64,000 nucleotides of DNA from contig CAWJJC010000028.1 in the NCBI GenBank assembly GCA_963843145.1, forward strand, positions 288,001 to 352,000, read 5' to 3'. The translations under genes were made by a program, and so were the position numbers. The stretch comes from an uncultured delta proteobacterium (GTDB lineage Bacteria > Desulfobacterota > RBG-13-43-22). Each line of letters starts with the position of its first letter. Positions within the stretch are counted from its first letter, which is position 1. The notes beneath the pieces are model-generated. The model made no database searches. It saw only the letters and a list, made by a program, of their open reading frames with translations, and had not been told where the DNA came from. Below, piece after piece: positions 55,558-64,000 of this stretch.

Positions 55558-58500
55558 TTAGAAGGTTTTTGCCCTCACCTGGCGGTATAGGGCTTCGGTC
55601 CCGGCAGAGGGTTCGACGTCCAGGTGGGCTTTTAGGGTGTTGCGGAGGCGGGTATAGGCCGATATGGCTGCCGCCCTATCTCCAAGGCGGCTGTAGCAGA
55701 TCATCAGTTTCTGGTAAAGTTGTTCGGCAAGGTCGTCCACGTCGAGGGCAGCCCGGTAACTGGCGCAGGCCTCATCCCAGCGGCCCTTTTCCTCAAGTTC
55801 ACCCCCGAGCGCGAGCATGAGGCGGAGGAATCTGTCTCTCAGCCGTGCCCTAGGAGAGAGCACCCAGTGCTCTTCTTCCAGGGGGAGGAAGTCGCCTCGG
55901 TAGAGTTCCATAGCCTGTCTGGCCAGGGACGCCCCATCTTCTTTCCCAAGCTCTGCCTGGGCAAAAACCCGTCCAAAGGCCGCCGTATCCACCCAGACCC
56001 GAAGTGGGTCGAGACTCACCTGGCCTTCGTGAACCAGGAGTGCTTTGTCGCTGCCGAGTAAGCGTCTCAGCCGGGACAGGGTAGTCCTGAAGGAGGTATA
56101 GGCGGCATCGCCCTCCGCATCAGGCCAGAGCAGCTCGCTCAAGGTCTCATCCGTTACCCCCTGGCCTCCCAAGGCAATAAGGGCCTTGAGGAGCAGAAGG
56201 GGCTTCTTCTGGAGCCGCGTCGTGTCGATGGGTGTATCCTCGACGAGGATCTCGAATCTCCCGAGGGTGAAGACTCTGATCGGCCACGGCCAGTGTGGAA
56301 TGTCCAGGGGCGGTGTGTAGGGGAAGAGCTCACGCTGCCGGATGAGGTCACGGGTGTACTCCACCTCTATCCCCGCTTTTAGCGCGATGCTGCACAAACG
56401 GGCCATGAGGGAGGGTATCCAGCAATAAAGCGGAGTTCTATAGCCCTCCTCCCGTCCTATCCGGAAGGCACGCCTGAGGGTATCGCGCGCATCGGGCGTC
56501 CCTTCATCCAAGGCCAGGGAGGCCTCAGCTATCAGGGCGGTATACTCCATGATACGACTCGGGGTTTGCGGCAAGCGCCGAAAGGCAGCTACGTGTTCCC
56601 TCGCCTCGTCTCGCCGACCTGCGGCAGCGAGCACCAGGGCGGAACCACAGTAGCCCAGGGCCGCAACAAAAATACCGAACTCATCGGGAGGGAAGCTCAA
56701 AAGCTGTTGGGCGTGGGCAACCGCACGGTGCGTATCCCCGGATCTTAAATGGTAGAGGGCGGAAACCATGTGATAGCGTTGGACGAAAAGTTTAGGAGCC
56801 CGGCCGAGCATAGACTCCATTTGTACCAGAAAATCAGAGGCCTTCCGAAAATCACCTCGGTCGAGGGCCACGTGGCATCCTTCGGCCAGGAGCATCGGTA
56901 CCCATACGATGGCTCCGTTCTCTGCCGACATTTGGAGACCTTCTTCAAGGAGAGGTAACGGAGATTGATCAAATGGTCCCATCTGGTTCAGCGCCTGGGC
57001 TTTGATCAAACGCCTGCATATCGCCTGTAAGGGGTCCTGTGAGTTTGCGGTCTTCTCCAGTTCCGCTACCACTATTGCCCAACGCCCGTAGTCTCCCAGC
57101 CACATATAGCAAGTCGCGGCCCAGTGCGATATCTCAAGGCGGAGGGAAGTGCCAGCTACGGAGCGCGAGAGCATGAAGGCCCTGTCGATCGATGCCTTGA
57201 ATTCGGGGTGATAGGGCCGCGTCAAAAGGGCCACCATCCTGCTGCCGGCTACCGTGGCCTCGATTTCAGAGGAGGGGAAGGTCCCTCCTTTTGCGGTAAA
57301 CGCGTCGAGCCATTCGATCAGCGGATCGAGAAGTAGAACCTGCTCATCCCTGTACGCGGTCGACATAAGTCCATAGAAGATCGACATGACCGCCCCGGAC
57401 CAGCCAAGAAGGGCGCCGGTAACATCACCGGCCTCGTTGCACTGCGTGAAGCTCCGCTCAAAAAGGAGGCAGGCTCCTTGAGGGTCGTAGGGCTGCCTGC
57501 AGACAGCAAGCCAGTAGAGAAGCCGGGGAGACTCGGAGCGGATCTCTTCGGGTAGAGATCCTATCCACCCCTCGAGGGTCTGGCTTCTGCCCTCAGCGAC
57601 CAAGCCGGGGGCCGCGGCAAGGAGAGCTGGGACCGAACTGTCCCAGTCCTGCGCCGCCATCAGGAGGGTTATCCCTTCCTCCGTGCGGCCCGAGTCTAAA
57701 AAGAGCTTCCCGGCCCGGCACCGGACCTCCCGCATTCTTTCGGGCGTCAGGGAGCTCTCCGCTTCAGAGAGAAGGAAGTCCCTGAAGAGCGGGTGGTAAC
57801 GATATTCATCCTGGTAGAGCTCGGTGAAGTAGTTGTTCCGGTTCAGGTAGGCAAGCAGCTCCCCGCTCTTCTCGAATTGGGTGAGTTGAGAGGCGATCCC
57901 GGCCGAAACGGAGGGAAGCAGCGCCGTAATGGTGAGGAAATCCTTTGTGAGCTGTTCGAGGCCGTCGAAAATCTCGGTCTTGAAGTAATCGAAGACCGAG
58001 CTGTCGCCAATGCGGTGTACCTCAGTGGACCAGACCGGGTCGGACATGAGGATGACTGCCGCCGCCCACCCCTGAGTCCGTTCATGGATATCCCGCACCG
58101 TCTCCTCGGATAAGGGCGTCTTCCTATGCTGCTCGAGCATTTCCCGTACCTCGCCTCGGGTGAGACGGACATCCTCCCAACTTAGGGAGGCAAAACCGTT
58201 GTTCGCCCGCAGGGAGACAAAAGAAGGGGGAGACTCCTTTCTGCTCACCACGAAAACGCGGATGCCCTCGGGCACGACCTTGAGCCCGTTGCGCATCACT
58301 TCGTGGAACAGGGAAGTCTCCGGAACATCCTGGTAGTTGTCGAAGACAATCATTCCGGGAGTTGCCATCCTTTCGAAGAGGGACTCGAAGTAGCGGCGCG
58401 TGAAGGCAGAAATACCGGGACGGTACTCCGGGGTGAAGAGGGGAAGAGGTCTTGCCCGTCCTTTCTTGAGCTGCCTGGCCGCGAGGCGAAGATAGGCAAA

Positions 58501-58782
58501 GAGGGTCGCCACATCCCCGTCGGTCTCGTCCACCCGGTACCAGAGCGTAGGAATTGCTCGTGCCCGGGCGTAGCTGGCCACGAGGGTTGTTTTTCCTGAC
58601 CCGGCCGGTGACGAGACCCAGGTGACTGGATAATCCTGTAGAGTATCCAGGAGACGGAAGAGTCGTTCCCTCAGGACAACCCCGTGTAGCCGAGGCGGTA
58701 CTATCTTGGTTGGATAGGTCGTCCTCGGTCCGGCCAATGCTTGTACTGGAGACTTCGTATCAGAAACCTTTGAAAATCCCAC
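55558..58782 (-). CDS. MalT-like STAND ATPase with TPR region and C-terminal wHTH/BTAD domains
   Basis: SPAGSGKTT, TQGWAA, YRYHPLFRDFL, LWPDAEGD, LSRLRRLL, LYRGDFL and EQLYQKLM motifs. Confidence 0.9.
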   Translation of the reverse strand: MGFSKVSDTKSPVQALAGPRTTYPTKIVPPRLHGVVLRERLFRLLDTLQDYPVTWVSSPAGSGKTTLVASYARARAIPTLWYRVDETDGDVATLFAYLRLAARQLKKGRARPLPLFTPEYRPGISAFTRRYFESLFERMATPGMIVFDNYQDVPETSLFHEVMRNGLKVVPEGIRVFVVSRKESPPSFVSLRANNGFASLSWEDVRLTRGEVREMLEQHRKTPLSEETVRDIHERTQGWAAAVILMSDPVWSTEVHRIGDSSVFDYFKTEIFDGLEQLTKDFLTITALLPSVSAGIASQLTQFEKSGELLAYLNRNNYFTELYQDEYRYHPLFRDFLLSEAESSLTPERMREVRCRAGKLFLDSGRTEEGITLLMAAQDWDSSVPALLAAAPGLVAEGRSQTLEGWIGSLPEEIRSESPRLLYWLAVCRQPYDPQGACLLFERSFTQCNEAGDVTGALLGWSGAVMSIFYGLMSTAYRDEQVLLLDPLIEWLDAFTAKGGTFPSSEIEATVAGSRMVALLTRPYHPEFKASIDRAFMLSRSVAGTSLRLEISHWAATCYMWLGDYGRWAIVVAELEKTANSQDPLQAICRRLIKAQALNQMGPFDQSPLPLLEEGLQMSAENGAIVWVPMLLAEGCHVALDRGDFRKASDFLVQMESMLGRAPKLFVQRYHMVSALYHLRSGDTHRAVAHAQQLLSFPPDEFGIFVAALGYCGSALVLAAAGRRDEAREHVAAFRRLPQTPSRIMEYTALIAEASLALDEGTPDARDTLRRAFRIGREEGYRTPLYCWIPSLMARLCSIALKAGIEVEYTRDLIRQRELFPYTPPLDIPHWPWPIRVFTLGRFEILVEDTPIDTTRLQKKPLLLLKALIALGGQGVTDETLSELLWPDAEGDAAYTSFRTTLSRLRRLLGSDKALLVHEGQVSLDPLRVWVDTAAFGRVFAQAELGKEDGASLARQAMELYRGDFLPLEEEHWVLSPRARLRDRFLRLMLALGGELEEKGRWDEACASYRAALDVDDLAEQLYQKLMICYSRLGDRAAAISAYTRLRNTLKAHLDVEPSAGTEALYRQVRAKTF

Positions 58783-58851
58783 TTCATATCTCGTTCAAAA
58801 AGGTTTAGAGAAATAACGAATTAACCTAATCAGGAAAGATAAAAGAGGGGG

Positions 58852-59148
58852 CTAACAACGAATAGGGCAGTTTGGTTGGCGAGGGAGATTGATAAAACAA
58901 GGGAGGCCCTGCAGGAATGAATTACACATTGACAATAAGGGGTGTTCAAAATAAGGAATGGATAAATTGATTTTGGTTTTCTCAGTGAAGGTTGAAGTGG
59001 CCAGGTCTTGATTTTCATAACAGAGATTAGGGGAGAAGGTATCAACCTCGCTCATTTCATAGTAGCTCGCAAAAACGAGGCCCACTAAAAAGCAGATTGA
59101 TAAAAAGGAAACTGAAATAATCGGCCTTTGGCAAATCTTCTTTCCCAT
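58852..59148 (-). CDS. Small hypothetical protein
   Basis: 98-aa ORF with N-terminal hydrophobic segment, ends PIRC. Confidence 0.5.
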   Translation of the reverse strand: MGKKICQRPIISVSFLSICFLVGLVFASYYEMSEVDTFSPNLCYENQDLATSTFTEKTKINLSIPYFEHPLLSMCNSFLQGLPCFINLPRQPNCPIRC

Positions 59149-59645
59149 TTCCAGCCCTTAAACTCATCTATACCATTATGACCAAGAGCTCCTATTCTTT
59201 CCTGATGAATTATGAAGGTCCAAAATTAAGAAAGCCTCCAGAGGAGAATACTTTCCCCGAGAGGCTTCATATCGTAAATTTCTGAAAATCCCACTTCATT
59301 TCCCACTCCCTAAAGGATGGGGTTAAGTTAGGATATTTACTCAAAAATTTTTTGTAATTTATTGTAGCAGTTAATGCCTAACAACTTTTAGAAAAAATGT
59401 CAATAAAATTATGATTTAAAACTTTCAGGGGATAACCCAGAAGGTAGCTGCCGTGGTTTTAAATCTTCCACTATTAAGTTAAGGAATAGCGTTCGAAATC
59501 TGGCAGTTTTGGCAAATCTTCAAAAAGTGGATTACAGGAAGAAGCCCGTTGCAGGGTTTACATTGCCCTACCCAACCCTTTATATTTTTATATTCGGTGT
59601 TCGGCAGGTCCTACCGGATTTTATTTTCTGGTCATGTGGTTCGGA

Positions 59646-61076
59646 TTAACCGCTCTTTTTCTCTCCCTTTTTCCATTCCGGGAAAACAATTTTCTCTCCG
59701 ATCCGGATTCTGTTGATATCCTTAATTCCAGGATTGTATTTCCGGACATAATCCCGCAACACTTGACTGGAAAAACCGTAGACCTTCAGCACCATCCGGA
59801 AAAAATTATCGCCCTTTTTGACCACTAGGGTGCCCCGGACGGGTGGCTTTTTCAAAACAAATAGTGGCTTCCCTTCATTATTCGAGCCCGGCTTCAAGGG
59901 CTTCGACTTTTTCTTAATAACTTGGAGATTCCCCTCTAATCGGTGGGAAGGTTTCAGTATTTCTGTTTCGGAGACGATCGGGGAGGTTGACGGGGCCTCC
60001 TCTTTTACCGAACCCTTTGAAGCCGATGGAACGGAGGGTCGTACAGACTCCTTTTCTTTAGACGAATCGATCATGGGGACCGAAGGAACAGATTTTCCCT
60101 CAGTGGCCTTACCGGGTGCTATCCGCCCGGATTGTCCTTGATTTATTGATGGAAGCCGGAAATCCCACATACGGGACAAATCCAGAGACCGGTCTAGGGC
60201 CATCCATCCCAGCAAGATCAATAAGACAATTACGGAGGATAAGGCCCAAGGAAAATTATTTATCCTTTTAGTGGCCAGCGGGCCGTCAATAACCTCTTTA
60301 ACGATTTTCCCTGAAATGGGTTTTTGGGCCCGTTCATACCCTCTGATCAGCACTTTGTTGCTGAGGATGTTAATTTTCCCCGGCCTCCCCCCGGCCTGGC
60401 GAATGATCTTATCCAGGGCACCCCGGGTGAATATGGCCTTGACCCGCCCGCCGGCCTTTTCTATCCGTGATGTGATATACTCCCGGCTCTCCTTGGGGGT
60501 TAAAGGAAGGAGGAGGATCCTCACACCGATCCGCTGTTTAAGCTGCCTTAAATCATGATGGCCCAGTGTCTCCCAAAACTCCGGCTGCCCGATAAAGACG
60601 ATCTGGATGGGGTTTTCGGAGGGGACCTTTTGGTTGGAAACCATCCGCAGGCTTTCCAGGGTCTCCTCGGGCATGTCGTGGGCTTCATCAATCAATAATA
60701 CCACGTTGGTGCCGGCTTCATAAGCCCTGCGCAAGCCCTGGATCAATTGATATGAAAGGCCCGGCTGTCCTTCACTTTCTCCCGGCAGGCCGAGTTCGCG
60801 GCAGAGAAATCGAAGGAGTTCCTCAAAGGAAATATTGCTGTTAAGCAACGGGATTGTCTTGAGGTTGCCCTGGCTCGCCTCTCGGAGGAACGCCTGGATC
60901 AGGGTGGTCTTTCCCAAGCCGAATTCCCCCAGGACCGTCATATAACCCTTCCGCTGGGAGACCGTATCGGTCAAGAGTTCCAAGGCCTTCTTCTGGCTGG
61001 AACTTAAAAAGAAAAATTTTGAATCTGAGGAAAGCGGAAAGGGCTTTTCTCTAAGCTGATAGAAATCAAGGTACAT
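59646..61076 (-). CDS. ExeA-like AAA ATPase with TM segment and C-terminal LysM-like domain
   Basis: MYLDFYQLREKPF, GEFGLGKTT, LIDEAH, IGQPE and LRQLKQRI motifs; VKKGDNF...NPGIKDINRIRIGEKIVFP. Confidence 0.88.
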   Translation of the reverse strand: MYLDFYQLREKPFPLSSDSKFFFLSSSQKKALELLTDTVSQRKGYMTVLGEFGLGKTTLIQAFLREASQGNLKTIPLLNSNISFEELLRFLCRELGLPGESEGQPGLSYQLIQGLRRAYEAGTNVVLLIDEAHDMPEETLESLRMVSNQKVPSENPIQIVFIGQPEFWETLGHHDLRQLKQRIGVRILLLPLTPKESREYITSRIEKAGGRVKAIFTRGALDKIIRQAGGRPGKINILSNKVLIRGYERAQKPISGKIVKEVIDGPLATKRINNFPWALSSVIVLLILLGWMALDRSLDLSRMWDFRLPSINQGQSGRIAPGKATEGKSVPSVPMIDSSKEKESVRPSVPSASKGSVKEEAPSTSPIVSETEILKPSHRLEGNLQVIKKKSKPLKPGSNNEGKPLFVLKKPPVRGTLVVKKGDNFFRMVLKVYGFSSQVLRDYVRKYNPGIKDINRIRIGEKIVFPEWKKGEKKSG

Positions 61077-61257
61077 GCGTCAGCGATTATTTTTCTTCCC
61101 CCGGATTGGCGGCAGGGCAGTCAACCCCGGTCACAGTCAGTCCAGGAAGGCCGGGCCTTGACTTCAGACCCCAGAGCGAAGCCGGCAAGGCCCGAAGGAG
61201 ATCCTCGTCGTTTTCTGAGCCTGTCTGTCCGTCTCTCCGAAAGCCGTTTACCCGGTT

Positions 61258-61625
61258 CTAAATTTCCTTAAGGGCCATGGCCGTATTTTTTGTATTCTGG
61301 AGAATGGCCGCATCCAAAAGCTTATCTTTATCCTTTACCGTTCTTAGCCGGTGCGATTCTTTTTACAATAGCCCCAATATTACCTTCCGGTTTTCCGCCG
61401 TCAACGGTCGCTTTTACCGCCCCGCAGGATTGATGTCCCAATATCAGGACCAAAGGAACACCAAGATGTTCCACGGCATACTCGACGCTTCCAAGCTCGA
61501 TGGGATCGGCAATATTGCCGGCTACCTGGATCACAAAAATATCGCCCAGTCCCTGGTCAAAAACGTGCTCCGGTGGAACCCGGGAATCGGAACAGCTTAA
61601 GACTACCGCAAAAGGATGAACAGAA
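61258..61625 (-). pseudogene. Beta-carbonic anhydrase fragment
   Basis: [17 protein letters not shown]...AGN...GHQSCGAV; N-terminus missing, frameshift and early stop at the C-terminus. Confidence 0.8.
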
Positions 61626-61838
61626 TTATAAACCATTTTGAAAATAGTAAATAGGGTGAATCTGACCCTAGGGGCAATGGTTCGGAGGGAGGAAAGTAAC
61701 AATTTTCATTTGAAATGTTCCCAATTAGCCCATTCTTAAGAAACAACAGTTCAGGAAGCTATACGTACTAAAATCTGATTTTCTTATTGAAGTTAATAGG
61801 TTACATGTTGTTCAAAATCTCATAGTTTGGTTATTTCG

Positions 61839-62732
61839 TCAAGCATTATTTGGGTGGCCAGCCGTTTGTTGCCTAATCACCTCCATGGCTTTGAAGTAGT
61901 CTCGCTGCACCTTAAGGTTTGAAATCCGGCAGTACCGTTGTGTGGTTTTCACATGGCTATGACCCAGGAGATCTTGAATGGTGGAAAGATCGGCATCGGC
62001 ATTGAGCAGTTGGGTGGCCATGGTATGGCGAAGATGATGACAGGACACCTTGAGCTTGGCTTGGCGAGCATAAGTTTCCATGCGCCGCTGAATGCCGCGG
62101 ATGGAGATGGGCTGCCCCTGACAAGGTTTCTTTTCCGCCAGAAAGATCTTTCTGGCCTTGGATGGCGGCCTCACCGTCAGATAGGCGGCCAGGGCCTGAA
62201 GGGCATCATGGCTCATATAGACGACCCGATCTTTTCCGCCCTTACCGTCTTCCACCAGGATAGTCCTGCGTTTGACGTCTATGACCCCGATCGTTAGCTG
62301 GGCGACTTCTTCCACCCGTAACCCGCAACGGAGCATGAGCATGAACATGGCCCGGTCACGGGCGCTCTTGATGACCTTAAAGAAGGTCTCCACCTGATCA
62401 TCTCTCAGGTGTCGGGGAAGGGGCTGGGACATCTTCTGGAGATGAGTCTTCTTGATGGGATTGGTGATAATCACCCCTTCCTCATCCCGCAGGTAATGGT
62501 AGAACTGGCGAATACCGTTCAAGTGGCAGTTGACCGTCTTGGGCGCCAGCCTCTTCCTCATGAGATGCTCGATGTAGCGTGACACGGTTACGTGGGTCAC
62601 GGCCTCCACCGGCACATCCAGCCAGATGATAAAGTGTTTAATGAGGTTCAGATAGTTCTTCACGGCATGGGGCGAACAGTTCCGCCGCTTTAAAAATCTT
62701 TGCCAGTTCAGGATCGCATCGGTCATCGCCAT
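61839..62732 (-). CDS. Tyrosine recombinase (XerC/D-like)
   Basis: GLRVEE, GKGGKDR, HHLRHTMAT and LLGHSHVKTTQRY motifs. Confidence 0.93.
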   Translation of the reverse strand: MAMTDAILNWQRFLKRRNCSPHAVKNYLNLIKHFIIWLDVPVEAVTHVTVSRYIEHLMRKRLAPKTVNCHLNGIRQFYHYLRDEEGVIITNPIKKTHLQKMSQPLPRHLRDDQVETFFKVIKSARDRAMFMLMLRCGLRVEEVAQLTIGVIDVKRRTILVEDGKGGKDRVVYMSHDALQALAAYLTVRPPSKARKIFLAEKKPCQGQPISIRGIQRRMETYARQAKLKVSCHHLRHTMATQLLNADADLSTIQDLLGHSHVKTTQRYCRISNLKVQRDYFKAMEVIRQQTAGHPNNA

Positions 62733-63777
62733 TACTGTCCCTCCTCTCTATTTTCGACATGGCTCTAAAATACTCAGCCTCCCGGGTCTTATCAGTCAGC
62801 CGGGCATACCGCCGGGTTTCCTCGATGCTCCGGTGCCCCAACAAAACTTGGAGACACTCCAGACGCAGGCCGGCGTTGAGAAACTCCGTGGCAAAGGTAT
62901 GGCGAAGGGTATGCAGGGAATATCCCTTGTCCGCCAATCCCGCCTTCTCCAGATAGCGCATAAAAATGGTCCGGGCGGTGCTGTAGGACATGGTCTCTGT
63001 CCGGGTATAGATCAGGTACTCCTCACCGGGATTCCTCTTCTTCAACCACCTCCGCAGAGCCAGGACCGCATCGTCGCTGAGATAGACCACCCTCCCCAGG
63101 CGGTTCTTCTCGCCTTCATAAATCTCTATCTTCCGTTCCTTAAGATGGACGTCGGCCATCTTGGTATTAAGCAGTTCTCCGATCCGCAGGCCCGTCCTCA
63201 ACAAGACCAGGATCATGGCCCGGTCACGAATATCGTCAATGACCGAAAGCAGCTTCCGCAGATCGTCAGGATCCATGGCCCGCGGCAGCCGCTCCGGTAA
63301 TTGCAACCGTATCCTCCTGCTGAAGAGTTCCGCGGAAACCCTTCCTTCTTCTAACAGGTAACGGAGAAAGGCTTGCACACTCACCAGCCTGGTCCTGATC
63401 GTTGTAATCTTAATCCCCCGGTCCTGCTCCCGCTCGATAAAGGTTTCCACATCCCTTCGGGTAATGGCTTCCAGGGATGTCCTGCCGCTCTCCCGTATCA
63501 GGCCCAGAAAAAGAATGATCGCCCCAAAACGGCTGTACAAAGTTCTCGGTCTGCGGTTGCCATACGTCAGGTGACGAAGATAGGCTTCCACCTGATCCTT
63601 CCCCGGAAGGTCCATCCGGACCAGCCGTTTTAAAATCTGGCCCAGCGCTTCTAAACAGTCTTTAGAATTTATTCTAAATCGTAATCGCGTTTGATAATAA
63701 TGGGGAGCGTTAACGGCGGGAATCTTAAAATCAGAAGATTTACTCGTCTGCTGTAGATCACTATGTCCGTTCATCAT
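62638..63777 (-). CDS. Tyrosine recombinase with N-terminal extension
   Basis: GLRIGE, HTLRHTFAT and LLGHRSIEETRRY motifs; AAGGAG RBS. Confidence 0.93.
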   Translation of the reverse strand: MMNGHSDLQQTSKSSDFKIPAVNAPHYYQTRLRFRINSKDCLEALGQILKRLVRMDLPGKDQVEAYLRHLTYGNRRPRTLYSRFGAIILFLGLIRESGRTSLEAITRRDVETFIEREQDRGIKITTIRTRLVSVQAFLRYLLEEGRVSAELFSRRIRLQLPERLPRAMDPDDLRKLLSVIDDIRDRAMILVLLRTGLRIGELLNTKMADVHLKERKIEIYEGEKNRLGRVVYLSDDAVLALRRWLKKRNPGEEYLIYTRTETMSYSTARTIFMRYLEKAGLADKGYSLHTLRHTFATEFLNAGLRLECLQVLLGHRSIEETRRYARLTDKTREAEYFRAMSKIERRDSNGDDRCDPELAKIFKAAELFAPCREELSEPH

Positions 63778-64000
63778 CTCTGTCTCCTTTTCTTAAATCA
63801 ATAAGAAAATCAGACAGATGATGACTAATAAACTCTTATCTGTCAAACATCAGCTTGGTACGTATAGCAGGAAGAAGCCGAGCATGTTGATATTCCACTA
63901 AAACCCATCCTTTTTACTAAATTTACCTCTTTCTACAAGGGGAAGCAGGGTATCCGGATTTTCTTTTTTGACGAAGTCTCCCAGAAACGTTACTATTAAA

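Follow-up and report, generated by a model that had tools for sequence, protein, structure and literature searches.

E1, a 2.1-kb multi-copy element of uncultured Syntrophales with two overlapping tyrosine recombinase genes and a fixed 7-bp core

Introduction

A stretch of 64,000 nucleotides (nt) from an uncultured delta proteobacterium (assembly GCA_963843145.1, contig CAWJJC010000028.1, positions 288,001 to 352,000), here called the window, contains the element E1 at positions 61759-63867, which is 2109 bp from inverted repeat to inverted repeat. E1 is a real, mobile, multi-copy 2.1-kb element of uncultured Syntrophales. It carries two overlapping genes for Xer-like tyrosine recombinases, yrA and yrB, between short terminal inverted repeats and is flanked on both sides by the 7-mer CAGGAAG. 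E1 is probably an autonomous, cargo-free and site-specific element whose two paralogous recombinases excise it as a circle with a lox-like site. Its own genome is labelled G000 (32 contigs, with the window on C28), and coordinates without a contig refer to the window.

Copies of E1 and the fixed 7-bp core

The own genome contains three copies of E1, namely, the one in the window, one at C10:93026-95148 with 95% identity and one at C13:72767-74873 that is cut by the contig end and differs from the window copy at 7 positions. The similarity among them is bounded sharply by TTCAGGAAG on the left and CAGGAAGAA on the right, and the flanks beyond are unrelated. Further copies with 85-96% identity were found in related genomes of the host family, with G020 containing three that are mutually 99% identical. 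With one genome per species scanned, the recombinase pair was also detected in records titled uncultured delta proteobacterium, Syntrophales, Smithellaceae, Smithella and Syntrophaceae. One record of two contigs (1.0 + 3.5 Mb) holds four copies with 4-20 differences per 2121 bases, and the flanks differ for each of them.

Insertions were counted once and loci met by two tools were merged, which left 23 insertions that could be read at both ends: the window, L003, L005, L006, L007, L009, L020, L021, L022, L044, L046, L048, L049, L050, L051, L052, L053, L054, L056, L059, L060, L061 and L062. They were drawn from the own genome, five genomes of its family and further Syntrophales, Smithellaceae and Smithella records. 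CAGGAAG was present on both sides in 22 of the 23, while L049 has a single mismatch on one side (TTTCCTG vs CTTCCTG). Among nine one-ended or truncated copies (L002, L024, L055, L057, L058, two in L023, L025 and L064), all except L064 adjoin the same 7-mer. The sequence-only reading, made before any database search, had proposed that variable 7-bp sequences would indicate a target duplication and a constant one an attachment site. As CAGGAAG is constant in 22/23 insertions with differing flanks beyond it, the 7 bp are a fixed core and not a variable target duplication. The same reading had named homologous gene pairs that lack these ends, or that extend into a larger element with a third gene, as the outcome that would speak against it. 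Pairs elsewhere share the ends and never have a third gene, and the element measures 2109-2263 bp in all copies with both ends readable, so the proposal holds on this point.

Two alternatives had been put forward at that stage: an autonomous two-recombinase element with the 7 bp as crossover core, or a cassette that carries recombinases and is mobilised by a DDE transposase. In its wider form, the latter makes E1 a cassette without autonomy that depends on a DDE or other transposase acting in trans, and inverted terminal repeats with a short flanking direct repeat do look like those of an insertion sequence. However, no DDE gene lies in or next to E1, no transposase of another class is found in it or regularly beside it, and the flanks differ at every site while the 7-mer beside the element is fixed. 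Changes in the ends follow the lineage of the element itself, and both recombinase genes are under purifying selection in all lineages (see below). Movement in trans is therefore very improbable, and the autonomous element with a 7-bp core is the alternative that found support.

Some copies are damaged. In L022 (G001:C13, 3135-6700), yrB is split by an insertion of approx. 3.6 kb, and both ends of the E1 copy still adjoin CAGGAAG. L015 is a degraded copy with broken open reading frames (ORFs). L023 and L025 were considered as miniature elements and rejected, as they are truncated, decayed remnants.

Architecture of E1

The two copies of the core were read directly at 61752-61758 and 63868-63874 on the plus strand. 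Next to them are the terminal inverted repeats (IRs) of 13 bp each, which came out of a repeat search. IR-L, CTATACGTACTAA, occupies 61759-61771 on the plus strand and has the form of a core-type recombinase arm that is kept in all family members. IR-R, at 63855-63867, has the minus-strand sequence CTATACGTACCAA, in agreement with the family alignment. The pair appeared in the repeat listing as 14 nt with 93% complementarity, and the pattern CTATACGTACYAA gave two matches in the window, IR-L and IR-R only, vs 0 in 100 shuffles.

The repeat search also gave a second, perfect inverted repeat of 17 bp, TCTGATTTTCTTATTGA, which is a putative accessory binding site. Its left copy (61774-61790, plus strand) begins 2 nt inside IR-L, and its inverted right copy (63798-63814, minus strand) lies between a promoter-like site and the ribosome-binding site of yrA. 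The two are thus offset unequally, by 15 nt from the left tip vs 53 nt from the right tip. Both pairs of repeats, the unequal spacing of the inner one and the exact CAGGAAG direct repeat had been described from the sequence alone and were recovered as described. The 17-mers vary among lineages with both ends changing in parallel, to TCTGC in the L049 group, to T at position 5 in L060 and to TTTTTCC in L063. Family-wide conservation was observed for the IR arms, the 17-mers and two blocks at the right end.

The promoter-like site, TTGACA-17-CATCAT (63818-63846, minus strand), reads into yrA. It is a consensus match only, with 3 such sites found vs 2.5 expected in the region; both of its hexamer blocks (TTGACAG and GTCATCATCT) are conserved across the family. 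Because the right 17-mer lies between this conserved site and the yrA ribosome-binding site, it may also provide autoregulation. Neither a DDE transposase, whose absence had already been noticed, nor a third gene or cargo was found in the element by ORF list and Pfam, and three antisense ORFs of 86-155 aa inside E1 matched no Pfam family.

The two recombinases

Both genes lie on the minus strand and were identified by ORF and Pfam. yrB (61839..62732) encodes a Xer-like tyrosine recombinase of 297 aa and yrA (62638..63777) one of 379 aa, with an overlap of 95 nt in the window copy. YR-A and YR-B each contain the Pfam domain Phage_integrase and an N-terminal SAM-like domain. YR-A has in addition a poorly conserved N-terminal extension of approx. 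45 aa and a C-terminal tail that is encoded in the yrB overlap. The catalytic set of YR-A (R198, K224, H289, R292, H315 and Y324) is invariant in 14/14 aligned homologues. In YR-B, R139, K167, H232 and R235 are invariant (n = 14 aligned), and H258 and Y267 are present in at least 90% of the 14, the exception being the frameshifted copy L019. ORFs, Pfam and residue alignments thus agree with the first description of a 2109-bp element with only two overlapping, catalytically complete-looking tyrosine recombinases.

The two proteins share 29% identity. Their best-aligned known structures are Xer-type recombinases, and their top-scoring models are XerC, XerD and XerA, with all curated family scores below the cut-off (157-204 vs 220-335 bits). 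Metagenome protein sets often include close homologues of YR-A (70-96% identity) under the name 'integrase/recombinase XerD', many of them on metagenome contigs about as long as the element.

Both genes were intact in all 14 copies of E1 and its sister lineage E3 that were examined, with an overlap of 68-98 nt; ORF calls in three copies of the E2 type overlap by 32-194 nt. The ratio of nonsynonymous to synonymous substitution rates was 0.09-0.27 for yrA and 0.06-0.15 for yrB (nine pairs each), and both genes are under purifying selection. From their co-conservation, their overlap and the analogy with XerCD and Tn554, it appears plausible that both recombinases are needed and act as a hetero-complex. 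A prediction of the YR-A and YR-B complex scored 0.28 and 0.21 vs a mark of 0.32, which gives no verdict and is evidence neither way.

Target motif

The left flanks of independent insertions are approx. 70% identical to each other, far below the identity of the element, and the right flanks have nothing in common past one to three bases. A nhmmer profile of the last 75 nt of the left flanks detected 19 copies of this motif in the own genome at E<0.02, 17 of which extend to a CAGGAAG end. The copy on the attB side of the window insertion covers 61684..61758 on the plus strand (C28:349684-349758, E=1.7e-15). A second, unoccupied copy on the same strand at 59473..59541 (C28:347473-347541) ends in CAGGAAG followed by AAGCCC. 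After the core, the 17 copies continue with E1 (two), with a 1.15-kb single-recombinase cassette (two) or with unrelated sequence (thirteen), and unoccupied copies carry a single CAGGAAG. In the host family, the profile recognised the left flank of 8/9 E1 insertions, the flank of L021 being below the threshold.

The conserved blocks of the motif are (C)AACGATTnnCGTTTGAAATCT, GCCnAAA and AAAAACAAGACTWCAGGAAG. Within the first is a palindrome, the box AACG-N5-CGTT, with 41 nt between its end and the core. At the window insertion, direct reading gave a degenerate copy of the box, AACAATTTTCATT (61698..61710), 41 nt from the core, and the alignment places it at equal distance in other motif copies. 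The left end of E1 (yrB side) faces the box in every insertion. In most sites, the core of attB is flanked by a 3-bp inverted repeat only (CTT-core-AAG). The motif lies upstream of diverse genes in gene orientation, with gene starts 240-400 nt from the core, and belongs to a unit of 260-300 nt with many copies in nearly every family genome, including genomes where no E1 was found (e.g. G010, G011 and G013).

An attC- or terminator-like hairpin as target was ruled out by RNAalifold, which gave 0.0 on 28 motif copies for both strands, and Rfam gave no match at E<=1 in window 58500-64000. Given the missing conserved secondary structure and the missing Rfam match, the motif is best read as a putative protein-binding DNA motif. 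A sigma-54 or sigma-70 promoter within it was dropped since the spacing was unfit by eye. Three sequences that follow the core elsewhere were considered as ends of other elements and rejected. Those at C28:665105 and C12:14264 are ordinary genes (MFS transporter and molybdenum hydroxylase, respectively), and the one at C8:33865 lies approx. 290 nt from the 3' end of a group II intron. This intron encodes a reverse transcriptase/maturase (L109 462-2212, G000:C8:34160-35910; Rfam RF00029 and RF01999) and is situated at that distance from a motif copy.

Sister lineages with other cores

Related recombinase pairs keep the arms of E1 with a changed 7-mer. In E2, whose YR-A is 52-57% identical to that of E1, L017 and L019 read CACCTAC-CTATACGTAAC...GTTACGTATAG-CACCTAC, with a box 30 nt beyond the core. 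E3 (70-72% identical; L045 and L047) is flanked by CAAATAC, with the box 31 nt away. More distant pairs from metagenomes are flanked by TTATCGC (L085) and ACAGGAA (L089).

In E2-type relatives (L016/L065, L015 and L079), CACCTAC was seen to point either way with respect to the element, and the two ends of L015 carry it as inverted copies. The metagenome contig L074 contains at 1800-1960 tandem gene-less mini-units of approx. 42 nt, CTATACGTACC..GGTACGTATAG, each followed by CCAAGTG, which look like miniature derivatives of the E family. Sites of two arms around 7 nt on contigs without a recombinase gene were seen in L072/L077 (1093/1914), L092 (1670) and L091 (792), e.g. as 16-nt arms around CACCTGC; L072/L077 has a box, AAGGATTACGGGTT, 27 nt from this site. 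They may be native lox-like sites or relics.

Junctions and empty sites

Metagenome contigs were scanned for two arms around any 7 bases, which gave 24 loci, four of them with a homologous recombinase pair. One of the loci, L089 (2246 nt), reads in the order flank, ACAGGAA, IR-L, genes, IR-R, ACAGGAA and again IR-L with 38 more left-end bases. The two proteins encoded there share 44% and 54% identity with YR-A and YR-B. The right end, a single copy of the flanking 7-mer and the left end are thus joined in this relative, as expected of a circle or a head-to-tail tandem.

Three one-sided empty sites were found, each with an unoccupied motif, one core and an orthologous right flank. G000:C12:162085 corresponds to the copy on G002:C33 (right flank 92% identical), G002:C15:49727, with the core CTGGAAG, to the copy on G000:C10 (89%) and G019:C37:78896 to a copy on G020:C13 (79%). 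The contigs of public runs show other flanks beside CAGGAAG, and one X3 contig of 1347 nt begins at the right core. Cover in the RNA library X17 does not show transcription.

Proposed mechanism

The following steps would account for these observations. The recombinases would pair both ends of E1 and exchange strands within the flanking CAGGAAG copies. A circle would be released whose junction, IR-R (13 bp), CAGGAAG and IR-L (13 bp), would form a lox- or dif-like site; an arm of 13 bp, a spacer of 7 bp and a second 13-bp arm is the geometry of dif, loxP and FRT. The circle would then integrate at a chromosomal CAGGAAG in the right context, i.e. at the end of the repeated motif, 41 nt from AACG-N5-CGTT and with the left end towards the box, and integration would restore CAGGAAG on each side. 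The attP site would accordingly consist of arm-CAGGAAG-arm and attB of the same 7-mer beside the host motif. The 17-bp subterminal repeats may serve as accessory sites, and lineages with a changed 7-mer and the same arms would land at other fixed 7-mers of the same host module. We infer the circular form of E1, the assignment of proteins to sites and the mode of exit, cut-out or copy-out. The general features of a tyrosine-recombinase integrative element, namely, complete recombinases, inverted arms and a shared 7-mer, are present in E1, and the junction was found only in the 44-54%-identical relative, where it is maybe a tandem.

Several observations weigh against this mechanism. The sequence-only reading had suggested looking for empty sites and circle junctions. 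The search gave the one-sided sites and the L089 junction described above, but no two-sided orthologous empty site was found when L001, L003, L020 and L021 were searched in relatives, and a circle junction or skipping joint of E1 had 0 matches in the assembled genomes, including the own genome and the fetched E1 loci. Contigs of four public runs (X1, X2, X3 and X17), which contained at most 0.28 of the sampled words, showed no joint across E1 and no go-back joint. L089 itself could be a tandem dimer and not a circle. In 3/3 comparisons between occupied and empty sites, the flank on the motif side was non-orthologous, which could result from chimeric assembly at a 2-kb repeat, from later exchange at the core or from a misplaced left boundary, and all genomes are metagenome-assembled. 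A misplaced boundary is unlikely, since the left flanks differ among near-identical copies both in G020 and in the two-contig record. The target bases that adjoin the core (..GACTT and AAGCC..) are unlike the element arms, which makes attB the weak point of the mechanism. Finally, L063 (CCATCTG vs AAAGCTG) and L016/L065 (CACCTAC vs CAGTAGA) have no direct repeat, and such unlike end 7-mers fit a carried 7-mer as in Tn916, Tn554 or SE better than strict core homology.

The last points touch a different explanation of the 7 bp, as a true target-site duplication from staggered cuts at a very specific target or as a carried 'coupling' or 'footprint' sequence as in Tn916, Tn554 and the SEs, with copy-out movement. 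Unlike 7-mers at the two ends are what donor- plus target-derived sequences would give, and the difference between target arms and element arms suits this explanation as well. Yet each lineage has a constant 7-mer, lineages with the same arms differ in it, and exactly one flanking 7-mer stands between the two IRs at the L089 junction. Moreover, textbook tyrosine recombinase sites, such as those of lambda, Cre, Flp and XerCD, have this layout of a 7-bp overlap between inverted arms. In favour of a carried sequence, SEs and Tn554 are described in parts of PMC10214605 as taking 6 bp along from the donor to the new site. If every target has CAGGAAG, a carried 7-mer and a homologous core are indistinguishable for E1. 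Taken together, a duplicated or carried 7-mer is an unlikely explanation compared to site-specific exchange within a fixed core.

Host junction module and a second cassette

The target motif is part of a larger arrangement, box-N41-CAGGAAG, a conserved spacer of 52/53 nt, CACCTAC-N35-box, which occurs four times in the own genome with exact cores (C2:122273-122339, C2:129429-129494, C6:44452-44517 and C6:110285-110351). The right flank of the window insertion (63875..63936, plus strand; AAGCC..GATAT..) resembles the 52-53-nt spacers between CAGGAAG and CACCTAC at these sites. It ends in CTTTCTAC, which by eye appears to be a degenerate second core CACCTAC. A contiguous unit of CACCTAC, box and CAGGAAG was not found, the three matches being chance occurrences in coding sequence.

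The 1.15-kb cassette mentioned above encodes one tyrosine recombinase of 279 aa (Pfam Phage_integrase) and is present in G000 in three copies with 92-97% identity (C2:126253-127400, C2:117656-118805 and C20:538966-540114). In all three places it sits exactly between motif-CAGGAAG and CACCTAC with the next box and replaces the spacer. Whole or broken, it was found in 5/20 other family genomes, with two copies in G012 and fragments in G003, G007, G016 and G020, and it ends there at the CAGGAAG core beside the motif wherever the end was readable. A common landing module, and perhaps a cassette system, is suggested by these arrangements. At or close to the two C6 modules, synteny is lost within the genus, and the junction module may mark exchangeable gene units. 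By a bolder and rather doubtful extension, Syntrophales would have a chromosome-wide, integron-like cassette system with this module as its junction. The two fixed 7-mers of the module would then serve E1, E2, E3 and the 1.15-kb cassette as common crossover points, and the insertion point of the E family would be set mainly by the 7-bp core carried between constant arms, so that a core change would re-aim the element.

These findings also bear on whether E1 is selfish and autonomous at all. It could be a host-serving module that shuffles gene units between junction modules, or a cassette moved by another recombinase, e.g. that of the 1.15-kb cassette. The fourfold module with exact cores, the precise position and the spread of the 1.15-kb cassette, the breaks in synteny and the non-orthologous motif-side flanks could all be seen in this light. 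On the other hand, the paired ends of E1 are its own, with arms that differ from the target, and genomes contain almost identical copies of it as well as decayed remnants, as is typical of a selfish element that multiplies. Family genomes in which no E1 was found have the motif too, and no cassette exchange was seen at base resolution. A host-serving or foreign-driven E1 is hence quite improbable, and an autonomous element remains the preferred reading.

Other features near the insertion

Two genes lie between the two target-motif copies of the window. One is an ExeA-like ATPase/LysM gene at 59646..61076 and the other a beta-carbonic-anhydrase-like ORF of approx. 100-124 aa on the minus strand (61328-61702). 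The latter is much shorter than is usual in this family and is probably a fragment. An unrelated repeat of approx. 320 nt occurs in dozens of copies in G000 at 70-92% identity (e.g. C27:103025-103333), and also at L005 960-1280; it looks like a miniature transposable element.

Significance

The movement of multi-recombinase transposons (RIT, Tn554, SE and GInt) is still largely unresolved, and the transposition of RIT and GInt has not been reproduced in the laboratory according to passages of PMC10214605. E1 looks to be a minimal system of two recombinases, two 13-bp arms, a 7-bp core, two 17-bp accessory sites and a defined target, and with so few parts it is a tractable model for the questions why two recombinases are needed and how capture works when the arms of the target do not match. 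In the sister lineages, the arms are kept and the core differs. They are a natural experiment on whether integration can be re-aimed by the core alone and bear on the design of tools for site-specific integration. For annotation, genes of the yrA/yrB type, now named 'integrase/recombinase XerD', mark a repeat that breaks Syntrophales assemblies.

Comparison with known systems

Prokaryotic tyrosine-recombinase transposons are divided into five groups, ICE/IME, SE, GInt, RIT and Tn554, in the relevant part of a 2023 paper (PMC10214605). E1 resembles RIT (recombinase in trio) elements in being a small cargo-free unit of adjacent overlapping recombinase genes between terminal inverted repeats and in occurring in some genomes in identical multiple copies (PMC3414803 and PMC10214605, in part). 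According to the same excerpts, RIT elements have three recombinases (RitA, RitB and RitC), approx. 3.5 kb, overlaps of 4-8 bp and inverted repeats of 34 or 28-9 bp, depending on the paper, and no defined core or target is reported in them. E1, in contrast, measures 2.1 kb and has two genes that overlap by 68-98 nt; its arms are 13 bp long, its 7-bp core is fixed and its target is defined. This sets it apart by description and not by Rit sequences. It thus shares inverted repeats without cargo and lacks the three-gene set. RitA is described with two core-binding domains and RitC with an extra C-terminal helix in the cited part of PMC8138268. By Pfam, YR-A has one SAM-like N-terminal domain, and it also has an unconserved N-terminal extension and a C-terminal tail. 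BIM modules consist of one recombinase and a non-recombinase protein, as stated in an excerpt of PMC3414803.

Two adjacent tyrosine recombinases with catalytic motifs and a strong target specificity with a short core are also found in Tn554, and on plasmids YR-A is best matched by the small recombinase of Tn554-like trios (L110, actinobacterial). Modules of this type combine an ordinary recombinase with one of at least 600 aa and a small third protein (360, 637 and 101 aa in L110), bring cargo with them and reportedly cause no duplication of the target, whereas E1 has neither cargo nor a third ORF and its YR-B comprises only 297 aa. Identity to the L110 proteins is 29% for YR-A and 23% for YR-B, vs 27.5% to E. 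coli XerC, and by sequence the E1 recombinases appear no closer to Tn554-type proteins than to Xer.

The XerC/XerD-dif system offers two paralogous recombinases that act as a pair, and the best scores of both E1 proteins are to Xer models. E1 differs in being multi-copy and mobile with identical arms, while Xer sites have XerC- and XerD-specific arms. The equivalog scores were 140 and 204 bits for XerC (cut-off 335) and 128 and 174 bits for XerD (cut-off 330). With scores below cut-off and three copies in the genome, the pair does not belong to chromosomal XerC/XerD, and separate Xer-like genes lie at C27:481547-482383 and C2:63367-64236 of the own genome. Integrons likewise use a tyrosine recombinase at repeated sites that separate gene units, and several element types share the crossover point. 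E1 differs from them in bringing its own recombinases and ends, and its target motif has no conserved hairpin. Scores of 69 and 110 bits for the integron-integrase TIGR02249 (cut-off 265) place the proteins outside this family.

Like E1, SEs (strand-biased circularizing integrative elements) and GInts are mobile elements driven by at least two tyrosine recombinases; they are specific in their targets, their terminal inverted repeats are imperfect and they carry short sequences along (PMC10214605, in part). As described in that portion, they have four core genes (IntA, Tfp, IntB and Srap, or GinA-D), among them one for a catalytically dead fold and one for an auxiliary protein, measure 15-35 kb with cargo and occur in Gamma- and Betaproteobacteria. 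E1 has two genes only, both with catalytic residues, and no extra genes. No published description of a compact two-recombinase element of the E1 kind was found in a search that a two-gene variant in Ricker et al. 2013 (RIT) would have escaped. By the defining gene sets, E1 is not a RIT, Tn554, SE or GInt element and is a new variant among tyrosine-recombinase transposons.

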